From positions 3,608 to 67,607 of the forward strand of contig JAHFJR010000003.1 in the NCBI GenBank assembly GCA_023245775.1: a stretch of 64,000 nucleotides of DNA, read 5' to 3'. This document shows positions 1-7,445 of this stretch, piece by piece. The DNA comes from Candidatus Peribacteria bacterium. Its GTDB lineage: Bacteria; Patescibacteriota; Gracilibacteria; Peribacterales; Peribacteraceae. Numbering within the stretch: the first letter of the stretch is position 1; every line of letters starts with the position of its first letter. The notes below the pieces were generated by a model. It did no database searches. It saw only the letters and a list, made by a program, of their open reading frames with translations, and had not been told where the DNA came from. Both the position numbers and the translations under genes were made by a program.

Positions 1-3000
1 CCGTCATCGTCGAAGGGACGATCTCGGGAGCGCTGCTTAGAGGAGCAGGTCTTGGCAGCTGTAATGGCACGACGCAGAAGCTCCTCTACAACAACACATC
101 ATTCAAATTTGAATGTGGGACAGACCTCCTTGGCAGTTTCGGTACCGGTAATGTGTTGATCATTGGTGACAATCGCTATGTCAATACCTCTGGCGACACG
201 ATGACCGGCGCACTCACGATCAACCTCACCTCCGGTTCTCTCGGACTCAAGATTCTCAACACCGCCTCCGGCAATATTATCCACGCTGAGAAGAACCTCA
301 CGAGCTCCGGAACCATCATCGCAGTGAATGACATTCTTAGTCGAAACGGTACCGCGAAGACGAAAGGCTACGTCCTCTTCTCTGGCGCAACCCTCTCGGA
401 AATGTCTGGTTTCAATGAATCCGTAAACTTGATCCACTCCGGCCTCGCAACCAACACCATCACACGTCTCACGAATCAGGGTGATCTTGTGAATATCGGT
501 ACGATTCAATCCGGCGAAGCGCACTTCAGAAGGGGTGGGACGTTTGCGACGAAGGTGGACTATACGACGGCTTTCGCTCCCATCTCGGTTGCCATCGGAG
601 ACCTCAACGGAGACAGTAAGGCTGATCTTGCTGTTGCAAATAACAACTCAAATTCCGTCTCTGTCTTCCTCAATAACGGCAACGGCACCTTCGCCTCCAA
701 GGTGGACTATACAACAGGCACAAATCCACACATTGTCTCCATCGGAGACCTGAACGGCGACGGAAATCCCGATCTTGCTGTCGCAAACTACAACTCAAAT
801 TCCGTCTCTGTCTTCCTCAATAACGGTAACGGCACCTTCGCTTCCAAAGTGGATTATACGACGGGAACGCATCCATACTCCGTCTCCATCGGAGATCTGA
901 GCGGCGACGGGAAGCCCGATCTTGCTGTCACAAACTTTGGCTCAACCTCCGTCTCTGTCTTCCTCAATAACGGCAACGGCACCTTCGCCTCCAAGGTGGA
1001 TTACACAACCGGCTCAAGTCCAGAATCCGTCTCCATCGGAGACCTGAGCGGCGACGGCAAGCCTGATCTTGCTGTCGCGAACAGAGACTCAAACACCGTC
1101 TCTGTCTTCCTCAATAACGGCAACGGCACCTTCGCCTCCAAGGTGGATTACACAACCGGCTCAAGTCCAGAATCCGTCGCCATCGGCGACCTCAATGGTG
1201 ACGGGAAGTCAGATCTTGCTGTTGCAAATAACAACTCAAATTCCGTCTCTGTCTTCCTCAATAACGGCAACGGCACCTTCGCCTCCAAGGTGGATTACAC
1301 AACCGGCTCAAGTCCAGAATCCGTCTCCATCGGAGACCTGAGCGGCGATGGCAAGCCCGATCTTGCGGTGGCAAACTACGGCTCAGATACTGTCTCCGTC
1401 TTCCTCAATAACGGCAACGGAACCTATGCGACGAAAGTGGATTATACGACAGGCACAAATCCATACTCCGTCTCCATCGGAGACCTGAACGGTGATGGTA
1501 AGGCAGATCTTGCGACTGCAAATAGTGGCAGCAGCTCCGTCTCCGTCTTCCTCAACAACTCTCGCACGATCCTCTATGCCAGTGCTGGCACCGGCGGAGC
1601 GGTCGGTATCGGTACCTCCACCCCGGGTTCCATTCTCGCGGTCTCCGGTGCCGTGCTCATCAACAGAAACGGCAATATTCTGAATACGTCAGCCGACGTC
1701 GGTCTCTCCCTCGAAGTCATCGGCACGATGTCCGGTCGCATTCTCCATGCGCAGGATCTGCTCCGCTCATCGGGTTCCGTCATCGTCGAAGGGACAATCT
1801 CGGGAGCTCTGCTTCGAGGAGCAGGTCTTGGCAGCTGCAACAGCTCTCTGCAGAAGCTCCTGTACAACAACACATCATTCAAATTTGAATGTGGGACAGA
1901 CCTCCTTGGCAGTTTTGGCACGGGCAATGTACTAATCATTGGTGACAATCGTTATGTCAATACCTCTGGCGACACCATGACTGGTGCACTCACGATCAAC
2001 CTGACGAGTGGCTTCCTCGGACTCAAGGTTCTCAACACCGCTTCCGGAAATATTCTCCACGCAGAGAAACAACTCAGTTCCTCCGGAACCATCATCGCAG
2101 TGAATGACATTCTCTCTCGAAACGGCACCGCGAAGACGAAAGGCTTCGTGCTCTTCTCTGGAGCCACACTCTCCGAAATGAGCGGCTTCAATGAATCCGT
2201 GAACCTCATCCACTCCGGCCTCGCAACGAACACCGTCACACGCCTCACGAATCAGGGTGATCTCGTCAATATCGGCACCATCCAGTCCGGAGAAGCGCAC
2301 TTCAGGAGAGGTGGGACATTCCTGCCGAAGACCGATTACACGACGGGGACAAATCCCTATGCTGTTGCAGCTGGAGATCTGAATGGAGATGGCAAGTCTG
2401 ATTTGGTTGTTGCAAACATCAATAGCGATTCGCTTTCTGTCTTTATTGGTACGGGCTCAGGTCTTTTCGTTGCAAAGTTTGATTACACGACGGGCAGTAG
2501 ACCGACCTCCGTTTCTATCGGAGATCTAAATGGAGATGGGAAGTCTGATTTAGCTGTTACAAATTACACTTCAAATTCTGTCTCTATCCTCCTCAATAAT
2601 GGTAACGGCACCTTCGCTTCCAAGGTGGACTACACGACGGGCTCACTTCCTTGGTCAGTTGCAATTAATGATCTCAATGGCGACGGCAAACCGGATCTCG
2701 CGGTCGCGAATAACACCTCCAGTACCGTCTCCATTTTCCTCAATCTCGGCAATGGTACCTTCGCATCCAAAGTCGATTACACGACCGGCTCAGGTCCATA
2801 CTCCGTTTCTATTGGCGACCTGAGTGGAGACGGCAAGGCAGATCTCGCTGTTGCGAATCAAAGCTCAAACTCTGTCTCCGTCTTCCTCAATAATGGCAAT
2901 GGCACCTTCGCCTCCAGAGTCGATTACACAACGGGTACCACTCCTTGGTCAGTTGCAATTAATGATCTCAACGGAGATGGAAAGGCTGATCTTGCGGTCG

Positions 3001-5330
3001 CCAACCAAGGTGGTACAGTTTCTGTATTCCTCAATAATGGTAACGGCACCTTCGCCACCAAGGTCGATTATGCAACAGCCTCAGGTTCAACATGGGTCGC
3101 TATCGGAGACGTCAATGGTGATGGCAAGCCAGACCTTGCCGTTGCAAATGAGACTTCAAATTCCGTCTCTATTCTCCTCAATAATGGTAACGGCACCTTC
3201 GCCACCAAGGTCGATTATACGACTGGTAGTGCACCTCATTCAATTGCTATCGGAGACCTCAATGGCGATGGCAAAGCTGATCTTGCTGTTGCAAATTACA
3301 GTTCAAATACCGTCTCCGTCCTCCTCAACAATGCTCGCACCATTCTCTATGCCAGCTCAGGCACCGGCGGCGCCGTTGGCATCGGTACCTCCACACCGGG
3401 TTCCGCACTCGCAGTCTCGGGTGCTGTGCTCATCAACAGAAACGGAAATATTCTGAATACATCCGCTGACGTCGGCCTCGCACTTGAAGTCATCGGCACG
3501 ATGTCGGGTCGCATTCTCCATGCACAGGATCTGCTCCGCTCATCGGGTTCCGTCATCGTCGAAGGGACGATCTCGGGAGCGCTGCTTCGAGGAGCAGGTC
3601 TTGGCAGCTGCAACAGCACAACCCAGAAGCTCCTCTACAACAATACATCATTCAAATTTGAATGTGGGACAGACCTCCTTGGCAGTTTCGGCACGGGTAA
3701 CGTGATGACGATTGGTGATGCGCGCTATGTGAATACCAGTGGCGACACCATGACTGGCGCCCTCACCATCAATCTCACTTCCGGCTTCCTCGGCCTCAAG
3801 GTTCTCAACACGGCTTCCGGAAATATTCTCCACGCAGAGAAACAACTCAGTTCCTCCGGAACGATCATCGCAGTGAATGACATTCTCTCTCGAAACGGCA
3901 CCGCCAAAACCAAAGGTTTCGTCCTCTTCTCTGGGGCAACCCTTTCCGAAATGTCTGGCTTCAATGAATCGGTGAACCTCATCCACTCCGGCCTCGCAAC
4001 CAACTCCATCACGCGTCTCACCAACCAGGGTGACCTCGTCAATATCGGCACCATCCAGTCCGGTGAGGCGCACTTCAGAAGGGGCGGGACATTCCTGCCG
4101 AAGACGGATTATACGACAGGTTCACTGCCAAATTTTGTCTCTATGGGAGACTTGAATGGCGATGGAAAAGCAGATCTTGTTGTTGTCAACCAAACCTCAA
4201 GTACCGTCTCTGTCTTCCTGAACAATAGCAATGGCACCTTTGCTTCTAAAGTTGATTATACGACTGGCTCAAGTCCACGCTCCGTCTCCATCGGAGACCT
4301 GAATGGCGATGGAAAAGTAGATCTTGCAGTTGCAAATGCCAATGATAGCACTGTCTCCGTCTTCCTGAACAATAGCAATGGCACCTTTGCTTCCAAAGTC
4401 GATTATACGACAGGCACAAGTCCATATTCCGTCTCCATTGGAGACCTCAATGGCGATGGCAAAGCAGATCTTGCTGTTACGAACATTGGTATCGGTGTCA
4501 AAACCGTCTCCGTTCTCCTCAATAATGGCAACGGCACCTTTGCTCTGAAGGTCGATTACGCAACCGGAACGAATCCATACCCTGTTGTTATCGGAGACCT
4601 GAATGGCGACGGTAAGGAAGATCTTGCAGTTGCAAATGCCGATGATAGTACTGTCTCGATCCTCCTCAATAACGGCAACGGGACATTCTCTACGAAGGTC
4701 GATTACACGACGGGTTCAAGTCCACGCTCCGTCTCCATCGGAGACCTGAATGGTGATGGGAAAGCAGATCTTGCTGTTGTGAATGGAAGTGATAGTACTG
4801 TCTCCATTCTCCTCAATAACGGCAACGGCACCTTCGCTACCAAGGTCGATTATACGACCAGCACAATTCCACAGTCGGTCTCTATGGGAGACATGAACGG
4901 TGATGGGAAGGCAGACCTTGCGGTTGTGGGTTCGAGCGAAAATGTAGTTTCTATTTTCCTGAATAATGGCAATGGCACCTTTGCTGCGAGAGTCATTTAT
5001 GCGACTGGCACAAATCCAATCTCCGTCTCCATCGGAGACCTCAACGGAGACGGAAAGGCAGATCTTGCTGTCGCGAACAGCTCAAACTCTGTCTCCGTCC
5101 TCCTCAACGACTCCCGCACCATCCTCTATGCCTCCGCTGGCACCGGCGGTGCCGTTGGCATCGGTACTTCCACTCCGGGTTCGGCCCTCGCGGTCTCCGG
5201 TGCCGTGCTCATCAACAGAAACGGAAACATCGCAAACAGTGCAGCCGACGTCGGCCTCGCACTCGAAGTCATCGGCACGATGTCCGGTCGTATTCTGCAT
5301 GCGAACGATCTCCTCAGATCTTCCGGCTCG
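1..5330 (+). repeat. Coding super-repeat, period 1776/1773 nt (three full units plus the tail of a fourth)
   Basis: Unit starts (GGN AAY GTN = G-N-V) lie at 147, 1923 and 3696. Connector and linker segments are near-identical at the nucleotide level, while the blade segments are clearly more diverged. Confidence 0.95.
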
Positions 5331-7445
5331 CTCGCGATCGAGGGTGCGTCATACTTCGGTTCCGGCGTCACAATTCGCACCACCCACACCAGTGCCGGCG
5401 CCAGCGAATTCACCATCATCACCGACTACACCAGCACCAGTAACAAGGTCTTCCGCGTCTCTGCCTCCGGTGCCGTCTACGCCGATGGCAGATATAACTC
5501 CGCTGGAGCTGACTACGCGGAGTGGTTCCAGACTTCGCGCTCCGGCGCTTCGTCCGACAGGCCCCTTGAGCCCGGCGAAGTGGTGTGTATCGATGTCACG
5601 CAGAACAACACCGTCAAACGCTGTGAGCGCTCTGCTGATCCTAACCTCATGGGCATCGTCTCCACCCACCCCGCCTTTGTGGGAAACGTCGTCTCTGGGG
5701 CCGACGGAGTCATACCACCAGGCTACGCGTTGATCGGATTGATCGGTCAGGTGCCTGCCATGGCTTCGCTGGAGAACGGTCCGATCCGCGCCGGAGATTC
5801 TGTCACCTCGGCAGAAACCCCAGGATACATTCGGAGAGCCAATGCCGGAGAATCCACCGTGGGTGTCGCCCTCGAAGCCTTCGATGGTGTGACGGCAGAC
5901 GGCTCACGACTCATCAATGTCCTTATTTCTAGGCGCAATCAGTCGCCGACAGTCGAACTCGTCGAACAGAAAGTGTTGGATTCCATCAAGGCCATGGACA
6001 TCACGGAGCAAATCAACAAGCTTGTTTCTTCCGTCTCGCAGAATCTAAACCTCGACGACCGCGTCACGCAGGCTCTGAACACGCAGCTTCAAGCCTTCGA
6101 CCTCGAGTCCGAAGTCAACCGTCTCGTCGATCTCCGCCTCGCCTCCCTCAACCTCACCTCCAGTTCAGCTGTCCTCACCTTCGCCAACTCCCTCACCGGC
6201 TCCTTCTTCCAGTCCCTCGCGAAGGCTGTTGCTTCGGAGCTGAGTTCTCCCACGACGGATGTTGATACGGCATCGATCTCGACTGGGAATGAAGTAAGAA
6301 TGAAGAATGATGAATCAAGGATCTCGCATCTTGAGTCCGTCCTCTCTGCTACCGGCGGTGTTGTTCGTTTTGCCTCAGGTACCACTCTGCATGCTGCAGC
6401 ATTGGATCTCAGTAGTGGAGCCACCATCCGTGGCAATCTCCACCTCTCCGGTGCCCTGATCATTTCCGACAACTTCTCTCTCCTCTCTGTTCACTACTCA
6501 CTCCTCACTATTTCCGGGACCGGCGTCCAGATTGGTTCTCTGATGGCCTCCGGTTCCCTCAAGGTCATCGGTCCGATCACCATCACCGGACTCGCCACCT
6601 TCCTCGGTGACGTGCAGATCAAGGGACAGCTGATTCTTAGCAACAAGCAGGCAGGATTCGCTGTGATCCCGAAGACTGGGACATCCGTGATCGTTCATTT
6701 CCCACTCCCGATGGTCGGTACTCCGATCGTCACGGCGACAGCCGATGTTCCGGTTGGGTATGCCGTGACGAAGACGAGTGCCACGGGCTTCACACTCCGT
6801 ATCGCAGAGCCTGCAACCGAGGACATCACCTTCAGTTTCATCGCGCTCTCTGCCGATCAGCCCTTCACGACGGTCGCTGGTTCTCATGCAACGGCGACGG
6901 CTTCGCTGATTCCGTTCCCCGTGAATATCTTCGGTCAGCCCGTGAGCTCCGATCCTCTGTGGAATGGCTGCATTGCAGGACATCCGGTTCTGAATTCCGA
7001 TGGTGTGCCCTTCAGTTGCAGTCGCTACCACTCCAGTTACGCGTGGGATCACCCCGATCTCCATATCAGTTTCCTCTACAATCCAAATCACGATCCCGCG
7101 ATTCTGACTCTGCCCGAGGGATACATCGTGGTGATCGTCTCGAGTGATGGAACCACGACTCCAGTGACTCCGGCCGAGGAGACTCCGATCGTCGAGACTC
7201 CACCATCCTCTTCGACTGGTTCTGGTCTTCTCGATGCATCGAGCGGATCCACCGTATCGGTTGATTCGCAGACGGGAGCGATCATCCCATCTTCAGTATC
7301 TGGGTCACGAGGTGAAACAGGGAGTTCCGTCATCACCTTCTTCGGTGCAACGACGCTCGAGTCTTCTCCTGAGTCTGGAGATGGCGCGGAAACAACATTG
7401 AGTGGCACGGGAACAGCACTGAGTGGGACGGGAGTGACGCAGTAG
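1..7445 (+). CDS. Giant surface/adhesin-like repeat protein, 5'-truncated by the window edge (tail-fibre-like connectors + FG-GAP/VCBS beta-propellers)
   Basis: The frame is open from nt 3. Nt 1-152 repeat the unit junction seen at 1777-1930 and 3550-3700, so the ATG at 153 is internal. Each ~591-aa unit has a ~125-aa connector (GDxRYVNTSGDTMTGALTINL), seven ~46-aa blades (GDLNGDGKxDLAVAN...SVFLNNGNGTF) and a Gly/Ser linker. The C-terminus carries an ADYAEWF...PGEVV...GIVS module, a heptad-like region and an S/T/P-rich tail. Stop TAG at 7443-7445. Confidence 0.9.
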   Translation, partial: VIVEGTISGALLRGAGLGSCNGTTQKLLYNNTSFKFECGTDLLGSFGTGNVLIIGDNRYVNTSGDTMTGALTINLTSGSLGLKILNTASGNIIHAEKNLTSSGTIIAVNDILSRNGTAKTKGYVLFSGATLSEMSGFNESVNLIHSGLATNTITRLTNQGDLVNIGTIQSGEAHFRRGGTFATKVDYTTAFAPISVAIGDLNGDSKADLAVANNNSNSVSVFLNNGNGTFASKVDYTTGTNPHIVSIGDLNGDGNPDLAVANYNSNSVSVFLNNGNGTFASKVDYTTGTHPYSVSIGDLSGDGKPDLAVTNFGSTSVSVFLNNGNGTFASKVDYTTGSSPESVSIGDLSGDGKPDLAVANRDSNTVSVFLNNGNGTFASKVDYTTGSSPESVAIGDLNGDGKSDLAVANNNSNSVSVFLNNGNGTFASKVDYTTGSSPESVSIGDLSGDGKPDLAVANYGSDTVSVFLNNGNGTYATKVDYTTGTNPYSVSIGDLNGDGKADLATANSGSSSVSVFLNNSRTILYASAGTGGAVGIGTSTPGSILAVSGAVLINRNGNILNTSADVGLSLEVIGTMSGRILHAQDLLRSSGSVIVEGTISGALLRGAGLGSCNSSLQKLLYNNTSFKFECGTDLLGSFGTGNVLIIGDNRYVNTSGDTMTGALTINLTSGFLGLKVLNTASGNILHAEKQLSSSGTIIAVNDILSRNGTAKTKGFVLFSGATLSEMSGFNESVNLIHSGLATNTVTRLTNQGDLVNIGTIQSGEAHFRRGGTFLPKTDYTTGTNPYAVAAGDLNGDGKSDLVVANINSDSLSVFIGTGSGLFVAKFDYTTGSRPTSVSIGDLNGDGKSDLAVTNYTSNSVSILLNNGNGTFASKVDYTTGSLPWSVAINDLNGDGKPDLAVANNTSSTVSIFLNLGNGTFASKVDYTTGSGPYSVSIGDLSGDGKADLAVANQSSNSVSVFLNNGNGTFASRVDYTTGTTPWSVAINDLNGDGKADLAVANQGGTVSVFLNNGNGTFATKVDYATASGSTWVAIGDVNGDGKPDLAVANETSNSVSILLNNGNGTFATKVDYTTGSAPHSIAIGDLNGDGKADLAVANYSSNTVSVLLNNARTILYASSGTGGAVGIGTSTPGSALAVSGAVLINRNGNILNTSADVGLALEVIGTMSGRILHAQDLLRSSGSVIVEGTISGALLRGAGLGSCNSTTQKLLYNNTSFKFECGTDLLGSFGTGNVMTIGDARYVNTSGDTMTGALTINLTSGFLGLKVLNTASGNILHAEKQLSSSGTIIAVNDILSRNGTAKTKGFVLFSGATLSEMSGFNESVNLIHSGLATNSITRLTNQGDLVNIGTIQSGEAHFRRGGTFLPKTDYTTGSLPNFVSMGDLNGDGKADLVVVNQTSSTVSVFLNNSNGTFASKVDYTTGSSPRSVSIGDLNGDGKVDLAVANANDSTVSVFLNNSNGTFASKVDYTTGTSPYSVSIGDLNGDGKADLAVTNIGIGVKTVSVLLNNGNGTFALKVDYATGTNPYPVVIGDLNGDGKEDLAVANADDSTVSILLNNGNGTFSTKVDYTTGSSPRSVSIGDLNGDGKADLAVVNGSDSTVSILLNNGNGTFATKVDYTTSTIPQSVSMGDMNGDGKADLAVVGSSENVVSIFLNNGNGTFAARVIYATGTNPISVSIGDLNGDGKADLAVANSSNSVSVLLNDSRTILYASAGTGGAVGIGTSTPGSALAVSGAVLINRNGNIANSAADVGLALEVIGTMSGRILHANDLLRSSGSLAIEGASYFGSGVTIRTTHTSAGASEFTIITDYTSTSNKVFRVSASGAVYADGRYNSAGADYAEWFQTSRSGASSDRPLEPGEVVCIDVTQNNTVKRCERSADPNLMGIVSTHPAFVGNVVSGADGVIPPGYALIGLIGQVPAMASLENGPIRAGDSVTSAETPGYIRRANAGESTVGVALEAFDGVTADGSRLINVLISRRNQSPTVELVEQKVLDSIKAMDITEQINKLVSSVSQNLNLDDRVTQALNTQLQAFDLESEVNRLVDLRLASLNLTSSSAVLTFANSLTGSFFQSLAKAVASELSSPTTDVDTASISTGNEVRMKNDESRISHLESVLSATGGVVRFASGTTLHAAALDLSSGATIRGNLHLSGALIISDNFSLLSVHYSLLTISGTGVQIGSLMASGSLKVIGPITITGLATFLGDVQIKGQLILSNKQAGFAVIPKTGTSVIVHFPLPMVGTPIVTATADVPVGYAVTKTSATGFTLRIAEPATEDITFSFIALSADQPFTTVAGSHATATASLIPFPVNIFGQPVSSDPLWNGCIAGHPVLNSDGVPFSCSRYHSSYAWDHPDLHISFLYNPNHDPAILTLPEGYIVVIVSSDGTTTPVTPAEETPIVETPPSSSTGSGLLDASSGSTVSVDSQTGAIIPSSVSGSRGETGSSVITFFGATTLESSPESGDGAETTLSGTGTALSGTGVTQ

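Follow-up and report, generated by a model that had tools for sequence, protein, structure and literature searches.

What kind of protein is encoded by a gene that repeats units of about 1.78 kb in tandem, and what could it do for the cell that carries it? We asked this of the first 5,330 nt of a 64,000-nt stretch of DNA (the window, contig C9:3608–67607) from the 1.2-Mb genome (42 contigs, 98% complete) of a Candidatus Peribacteria bacterium, an uncultured, ultra-small member of the Candidate Phyla Radiation (CPR)/Patescibacteria. To our knowledge, apart from the type IV pili described in Saccharibacteria that have been cultivated, little has been learnt about how these bacteria recognise and hold their hosts. 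Our analysis suggests that positions 1–5330 are probably the middle of a very large gene for a secreted surface fibre, in which several propellers are carried along a shaft resembling the mosaic adhesive trimer (MAT) fibres of Bdellovibrio, and which is a plausible attachment device.

Positions 1–5330 fall wholly within a single intact open frame on the forward strand (3..7445, 2,480 aa) that is open at the left edge of the window. An earlier reading made from the letters of this DNA alone (hereafter the sequence-only reading) had proposed that the gene runs past that edge, and the frame indeed remains uninterrupted upstream to base 1 of contig C9, giving 3,683 residues over ~11 kb. The same reading had counted at least 3.1 tandem units of 1776/1773 nt; the tandem units are there, but contig C9 holds five of them, a lower bound for this genome, as direct repeats with start-to-start spacings of 1782/1776/1776/1773 nt. 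One unit comprises ~592 aa, with a connector of ~253 aa followed by exactly seven FG-GAP blades of 48–51 aa (typically 49), the number that had been predicted for every unit, and Tandem Repeats Finder (TRF) gives a blade period of 147 nt inside each unit. Along the C9 part of the protein the motif GDTMTG stands at residues 81, 675, 1267, 1859 and 2450, and RTILYAS at residues 540, 1132, 1724, 2315 and 2908. The periodicity and identity of the units are far beyond chance.

The propellers are recognised by established domain families. The window part of the protein alone scored 716 bits against Pfam FG-GAP_3 (PF13517, the former VCBS model; cut-off 26.9) over 22 stretches (E=4e-221), and 434 bits against Pfam FG-GAP (PF01839) over 21 stretches. 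On the forward strand, the propeller of unit 3 occupies 546..1562, with seven 49-aa blades that each carry a calcium-type loop and share a median identity of 80% aa; that of unit 4 occupies 2322..3335, with one blade of 48 aa; and that of unit 5, the most diverged of the propellers, occupies 4095..5114, with one blade of 51 aa. The calcium-type loop D-x-[N/D/S]-x-D-[G/S/A]-x-x-D is present in all 35 blades, 22 of which have the strict form DxNxDGxxD. Unit 4 was chosen for modelling, and an AlphaFold2 model was built for this unit plus its flanks from an alignment of 13 cassettes from the giant protein and related proteins. The propeller was modelled confidently, with a predicted local distance difference test score (pLDDT) of 84–96 over residues 250–590 and of about 90 over residues 246–598, and with ~30 strands across residues 244–598. 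Foldseek against the PDB matched it to seven-bladed FG-GAP-type propellers with probability 1.0 over ~340–370 columns, with template modelling (TM) scores, taken by target, of 0.66–0.79. The matches include ITFG2 in KICSTOR, CRTAC1, BBSome propellers, the fungal lectin PVL (24% identity) and integrin alpha headpieces. Predicting the structure of one unit, a check that the sequence-only reading had proposed, therefore returned a confident seven-bladed propeller; from the blade count, the DSSP strand assignment and the lengths of the Foldseek alignments, the seven four-stranded blades would form one closed ring.

Variation among the blades is concentrated at a few positions of this fold. Entropy over the 35 blades peaks at columns 8, 9 and 11 (TTG-x-x-P-x) and at columns 33, 34, 35 and 38 (AN-x-x-x..x), which is where the sequence-only reading had placed the differences (TTGxxPxxV and ANxxSxx), while nearly all other columns are close to invariant, the sole exception being column 24 (P/S/A) inside the calcium loop. 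By DSSP of the unit 4 model, the variable columns correspond to the 4-1 and 2-3 loops and the calcium loop to the 1-2 loop. Since successive loops of a beta-meander blade alternate between faces, the model places the variable residues of the propeller together on one face, opposite the calcium loops. In integrin alpha the calcium loops are likewise 1-2 loops, on the lower face, while the 4-1 and 2-3 loops build the upper face, to which ligands attach; in PVL, N-acetylglucosamine (GlcNAc) is bound between blades. Blades within a propeller are 69–82% identical. At the seven top-face loop columns the ratio of nonsynonymous to synonymous divergence (dN/dS) among units was 0.98–1.41, against 0.07 elsewhere, a comparison for which the sequence-only reading had asked; these columns were picked because they vary, so a value of ~1 cannot itself prove positive selection. 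Of the diversified ligand-binding faces that had been proposed, the placement of the variable loops on one face therefore stands, and positive selection is not demonstrated. Hypermutation of the loops by a diversity-generating retroelement (DGR) was considered and rejected, as no reverse transcriptase (PF00078) was found in the 98%-complete genome and control genomes were positive.

The connectors tell us about the shaft on which the propellers would sit. In the window, the connector of unit 3 is represented by its last 181 codons (3..545, forward strand), having started upstream at C9:3394, and contains a Cys-x18-Cys loop, GDTMTG at window position 192 and a pre-propeller adapter ending in HFRRGGTF; it shares 95–97% aa and 86–88% nt identity with the connectors of units 2, 4 and 5. 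The complete connector of unit 4 (1563..2321, forward strand, 253 aa), which holds the capping-loop and T4 long tail fibre matches and the rare adapter family described below, runs from a capping-loop segment (RTILYAS..VGIGTSTPGSIL) through a Cys-x18-Cys loop and GDTMTG (window 1968) to the adapter (..NIGTIQSGEAHFRRGGTF). That of unit 5 occupies 3336..4094 on the same strand, with GDTMTG at window 3741, and a last capping-loop segment follows propeller 5 at 5115..5345 (forward strand), where it is 90% identical to the internal copies before the sequence departs from the repeat. No Pfam family was found in the connector, and NCBIfam likewise gave nothing meaningful there; the NCBIfam matches that did appear (XAC2610_fam, GatD and others) were discarded as spurious, since they come from the blade repeat and lie far below, or are unrelated to, the cut-offs.

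Profile comparison was more informative. The segment that follows each propeller is 96–99% identical among the four internal copies and ~90% identical in the terminal copy after unit 5, and it is conserved in other genera too. The sequence-only reading had taken it for a Gly/Ser-rich linker, a description that has to be replaced: it is a conserved capping-loop element of the Bdellovibrio MAT fibre type. Its profile matched the crystal structures in the PDB of Bd2133 (8OND, E=8.7e-17, three stretches) and Bd1334 (8OML, E=4e-10), and more weakly those of Bd3182 (8OJN, E=1.6e-7) and Bd2439 (8OL4, E=0.009). In the published fibres the element V-G-x-x-x-x-P-x-x-x-L (consensus V-G-G/N-small-x-x-P-x-x-x-L) forms the capping loops of trimeric beta-helical MAT fibres (PMC10769870); the local form VGIGTSTPGSAL (..ILYAS..VGIGTSTPGSAL..) is one residue longer than that consensus. 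Five capping-loop copies lie in the C9 part of the protein and five in the part on contig C17, introduced below. Every connector also contains a pair of cysteines, spaced Cys-x18-Cys, or x17 in unit 1, and such disulphide-type pairs would fit an extracellular protein. The GDTMTG repeat, compared as a profile, matched the proximal subunit of a T4-type long tail fibre (9f4a) with E=4.2e-5 over 32 residues and several tail-fibre families of PHROG (best E=1.6e-6), while the whole connector had no tblastn match in 50,697 phage records. The proposed tail-fibre-like connector is thus upheld only as far as a motif of ~30 aa. The 86-aa adapter before the propeller is rare: there are 20 representatives at E<=1e-3 among 1.84 billion, mostly in proteins of 3,500–5,400 aa, and in a 401-genome sample of the phylum it occurs only in this genus and in two genomes of one other family. 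In a genome from another family of the phylum (G236, contig C1, ~208568–208774), the adapter lies inside an open frame of 11,716 aa.

The beginning of the gene appears to lie on another contig, C17, on the reverse strand. The C17 part starts with MHTQRTSLARLLLGIYLVMLLPSDG, a predicted Sec-type signal peptide in which a basic n-region is combined with a hydrophobic core of 13 residues, and which would fit a surface location of the fibre. Its frame encodes 1,292 aa, made up of fibre repeats of the GDTMTG type and devoid of propellers, and a Pfam search of its N-terminal 322 aa gave no match. The end of the C17 part (..SYALGSF) and the start of C9 (TVSGTTLVISQNGSFSGS..) lie ~13 residues apart in one repeat register; C17 and C9 have the only unpaired fibre-gene contig ends, those of contigs C31 and C10 pairing together; and in sister genomes the multi-cassette genes have N-termini that match that of C17 from its residue 1 onwards, with 46% identity. 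Taken together, these observations make it almost certain that C17 (reverse complement) and C9 carry one gene, of at least 4,988 aa. The giant gene occupies ~1.2% of the genome. Divergent from its start, at C17:4204–7449 (forward strand), lies a gene for a protein of 1,081 aa that belongs to no obvious family and is helical over long stretches resembling coiled coils; this protein could be a partner of the fibre.

At its other end, the giant protein closes with a C-terminal region of 700 aa (5346..7445, forward strand, stop codon 7443–7445), in which a GADYAEWF beta domain is followed by a helical stretch, a beta-rich domain, a Cys-containing domain and a Ser/Thr/Pro-rich tail. This region is conserved in the genus at 48–64% identity. 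The last codons of the gene contain a 21-nt tandem repeat (window 7382–7433, 2.5 copies, TGGCACGGGAACAACACTGAG) that encodes LSGTGTA/LSGTGVT. As the repeat keeps the reading frame, a change in its copy number would affect the length of the tail only.

The same architecture recurs in related genomes. The cassette was found in three of the five other genomes of the genus that were searched, with one to five cassettes per gene and a tandem spacing of 1776–1794 nt. One sister genome has 14 cassette copies, and five of them are found in each of two genes, of 6,186 and at least 4,929 aa. In another, whose assembly consists of only 8 contigs, two adjacent genes (4,707 and 4,793 aa) carry four cassettes apiece and a 4,325-aa gene carries one. 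The two adjacent genes (G005, contig C5, ~101–131 kb; L019 and L020) lie on the same strand, and their connectors pair by position between both. In the related protein P0006 (G005, contig C5, L021:3102–16076), which has a single cassette, a Peptidase_S74 domain sits mid-protein, upstream of the GADYAEWF region and not at the C-terminus. The genome of the giant gene has further fibre genes. A paralogue at C17:40943–38331 (reverse strand; L002, L003) has the same C-terminal region, 50% identical over 666 aa, and is interrupted by a run of N. Another fibre gene is divided between two contig ends, C31:1242–1 (reverse strand), ending in ..GNITINDDA, and C10:2–1336 (forward strand), starting with NDDADTNNAVLTF.., and it is very probable that these contigs adjoin. 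C10:4565–6649 encodes yet another, shorter protein with GDTMTG repeats. The genome thus holds a small fibre family. The NCBI label on relatives is "FG-GAP-like repeat-containing protein", and one relative, 57% identical, has a cluster member annotated as Candidatus Peribacteria.

How the units came to combine near-identical connectors with divergent propellers is a point on which the sequence-only reading needed revision. It had put the connectors at >90% identity in protein, and those of units 2–5 are in fact 95–97% identical (aa); it had also called them similar in DNA, which was overstated, as their nt identity is only 86–89%. Among these connectors dS is 0.44–0.59 and dN 0.03–0.05, giving a dN/dS of 0.06–0.09. 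The propellers are less alike than the connectors, as had been said, though at 68–84% aa identity between units (67–74% against unit 1) rather than the ~60% first estimated; their dN/dS is 0.13–0.18 and their dS 0.8–1.5, a whole-propeller value that is inflated by the alignment of non-orthologous blades between units. Blades are closer to one another within a unit (73% nt) than between units, and positional orthology is absent, with nt identities of 69.7% for the same position and 69.0% for other positions; blade turnover within propellers is real. Unit 1, which lies upstream of the window (C9:1–3607), shows a recent two-blade duplication (L005:895–1482), its blades 3 and 5 being identical in protein (100%) and 98% identical in DNA, and its blades 4 and 6 being 90% identical in DNA. 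The first half of the connector of unit 1 has only 48% DNA identity to the other units.

One explanation of this contrast is that ongoing gene conversion keeps the connectors near-identical while positive selection diversifies the propeller faces, an account that we find possible but doubtful. A connector dS of ~0.5, with DNA that differs at 11–14% of sites, leaves no room for recent conversion, and a dN/dS of ~0.07 is enough on its own to account for the identity of the protein, so that purifying selection, and not recent or ongoing homogenisation, keeps the connectors alike. The scaffold homogenisation that had been suggested therefore fails as a current process, yet an older episode is plausible. 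The proportion of synonymous differences (pS) among connectors, 0.33–0.41, is about half of that among blades of different units (0.5–0.77), and the contrast persists in units 4 and 5, within which no blade turnover more recent than pS 0.42 is seen. In a tree of the adapter and post-propeller segments, the five cassettes of this genome form one clade (Shimodaira–Hasegawa-like approximate likelihood ratio test, SH-aLRT, 92), whereas those of the sister genomes group according to their place along the gene. The tree of the propellers is star-like, and the propellers of this genome are not monophyletic in the best tree; their monophyly was not rejected by an approximately unbiased (AU) test (p=0.074), which thus does not separate connector-restricted conversion from whole-unit amplification followed by blade turnover. 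A GENECONV-like run test found short concordant runs in some connector pairs (permutation p=0.004–0.015), a weak signal that comes partly from a divergent tract of unit 3. The connector pS and the connector clade together make older concerted evolution confined to the connectors, or lineage-specific re-amplification, likely. For the selective half of the explanation, the loop dN/dS of ~1 comes from sites chosen as variable and is no evidence of positive selection.

The remaining alternatives concern what the array is. That it is an artefact of collapsed, expanded or mis-joined copies is suggested by the start of contig C9 inside the array, where the assembler broke at this repeat, and by exact repeats of 99–126 nt in unit 1, but all five units differ (at 11–14% of connector bases and 20–32% of propeller bases) and the 11 kb contain no exact repeat of 127 nt or longer. 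Together with the unbroken frame and with arrays of the same 1.78-kb spacing in three other genomes of the genus, including the one in 8 contigs, this indicates that the architecture is real and makes an artefact very unlikely. That this is a tail-fibre gene of a phage or prophage, and does not encode a surface protein of the cell, is suggested by the GDTMTG and capping-loop motifs, which phage fibres share, and by the Peptidase_S74 chaperone domain of the close relative P0006. Peptidase_S74 (PF13884) is absent from the whole genome that carries the giant gene, however, with control genomes positive, and in four genomes of the genus the orthologues are chromosomal, some of them lying next to a paralogue. 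The predicted signal peptide also speaks against a phage gene, as do the genes downstream in the window, which are housekeeping ones (ogt, ilvA and a Liv transporter). A prophage origin was rejected on these cellular neighbours and on the null result in phage records, and we rate a phage gene as the least probable of the alternatives. Nor do we give much weight to the propellers being enzymes or a toxin-delivery scaffold (RGL11 lyase, aldos-2-ulose dehydratase or the FG-GAP regions of Tc-type toxins) instead of binding modules. Foldseek did return aldos-2-ulose dehydratase (4a7k) and a Tc holotoxin chain, and Pfam gave a sub-domain-level match to TcdB_toxin_midN, but these matches are generic to the FG-GAP blade, no TcdB_toxin_midN stretch passes alone, and Pfam and NCBIfam found no catalytic or toxin domain anywhere in the protein. 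Moreover, the most variable residues are in surface loops, whereas an active site would be conserved; such a role is very improbable.

A long surface fibre is the most probable reading when four features are combined: the predicted signal peptide, motifs of the MAT and tail-fibre types in the shaft, calcium-type propellers akin to those of lectins and integrins, and variability confined to one face. In this surface fibre, a signal peptide and ~1,290 aa of propeller-free repeats would be followed by at least five 592-aa units and the 700-aa C-terminal region, each unit running from capping loop through Cys-x18-Cys loop, GDTMTG motif and 86-aa adapter to a seven-bladed calcium propeller. By analogy with its relatives the fibre is probably trimeric, and such a trimeric shaft would display propellers sideways at the level of each unit. 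The top faces (4-1 and 2-3 loops), different in all 35 blades, may recognise glycans or proteins on the surface of partner or host cells, so that one fibre could combine several binding specificities with high valency; attachment to several targets is a plausible function. The five units would descend from one cassette type by lineage-specific amplification, old connector gene conversion or both, with the connectors now under strong purifying selection, the blades turning over within each propeller, and the top-face loop positions evolving about as fast as synonymous sites. A bolder version, which we put forward as speculation and think unlikely to hold in full, is a multi-receptor "reading head": a phage-fibre-derived trimeric shaft with a portable cassette that could be inserted any number of times, in which each propeller would offer a different lectin-like face, copy number (1 to at least 5 among species of the genus) and loop sequence would set which partner cells the episymbiont grips, and connector-restricted conversion would keep the shaft compatible as the faces diverge.

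Several observations weigh against the surface-fibre interpretation. The connectors fold poorly in the AlphaFold2 monomer model (pLDDT <50), and the trimer is drawn from short-motif homology only; an obligate trimer modelled as a monomer would be expected to score this low, but the low score is no evidence for a trimer. Relaxed constraint is as consistent with a loop dN/dS of ~1 as diversifying selection is. The unit count and the C17–C9 join come from the assembly and from comparison only. The C-terminal region belongs to no family by Pfam or NCBIfam; against the PDB, phmmer and a 7-sequence profile gave only E>=0.14, the best being a lactococcal phage receptor-binding protein (5e7t), and its AlphaFold2 model (pLDDT 36) is too poor for use. 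The MAT likeness stems from the capping-loop motif, the conserved, beta-rich ~130-aa N-terminal domain that defines MATs and directly follows their signal peptide lying outside the comparison. The published MAT fibres, moreover, are trimeric, have ~1,000 aa, lack propellers and carry one binding domain, which sits at the C-terminal tip (Caulton et al. 2024, PMC10769870).

If the interpretation is right, the giant gene offers a concrete candidate for host attachment, one that is under purifying selection and has parts related to experimentally shown Bdellovibrio adhesins. As a candidate for host recognition in CPR bacteria it is mechanistically unsurprising. It does bring together three layers of repetition in one system (blades in a propeller, cassettes in a fibre and paralogous fibres in a genome), each of which balances amplification, conversion and selection differently. 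As a compact domain that is modelled with confidence, the propeller could be expressed alone and used on a glycan array. Were the "reading head" to prove true, it would be a cellular analogue of phage host-range modules, lined up one after another along a single molecule.

Taken singly, FG-GAP propellers, MAT fibres and the giant surface proteins of CPR bacteria are all known already. The closest counterparts are the MAT fibres of Bdellovibrio bacteriovorus, in particular the NS74 subgroup, which are also cell-encoded and phage-fibre-like, which bear a signal peptide such as is predicted here, and whose modular, swap-prone architecture the giant fibre would share. The capping-loop motif of Bd2133, Bd1334 and Bd3182 follows every propeller and has five further copies in the N-terminal part, and the genome, in keeping with the NS74 subgroup, is without an S74 domain. 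Unlike MAT fibres, the giant fibre has ~5,000 aa and five propellers within its shaft, and its host is a CPR bacterium and not a predator such as Bdellovibrio. With the proximal subunit of T4-type long tail fibres (gp34 type, 9f4a) and the PHROG families it shares a ~30-aa core (..RYVxxxGDTMTGxLxIN..), but the likeness is limited to that motif, and the giant gene is chromosomal and encodes a predicted signal peptide. Highly repetitive VCBS/FG-GAP propellers amplified from single blades have been described (Pereira and Lupas 2022, PMC9218822), and the present ones resemble them in a median blade identity of >60% within a propeller and in the local two-blade duplication; amplification in those is within the domain, whereas here whole propeller-plus-connector cassettes are also tandemly amplified. 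Giant exported CPR proteins with integrin/FG-GAP annotations have been proposed for host attachment in Vampirococcus lugosii (PMC8080830) and in Peribacteria (PMC4736985); those papers list domains only and describe neither a cassette of fibre and propeller nor how such a cassette is amplified in tandem and selected. In the literature that we searched, we found no MAT-like shaft with propeller cassettes in series or the rare adapter accompanying them, and no description of cassette copy-number variation within one genus or of a conserved shaft set against one-face variability; propellers are nowhere mentioned in the paper that defines MAT fibres.

Among propellers of known structure, those of the giant fibre are most readily compared with ITFG2, CRTAC1, the integrin alpha headpiece and PVL (2BWR), with which they share seven blades, a DxNxDGxxD loop between strands 1 and 2 and membership of Pfam FG-GAP/FG-GAP_3. 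In integrins the calcium loop is present in only three or four blades, whereas the propellers of the giant fibre have it in all seven. Finally, integrin-type heads are carried singly on a stalk, and in the giant fibre five propellers follow one another in series.

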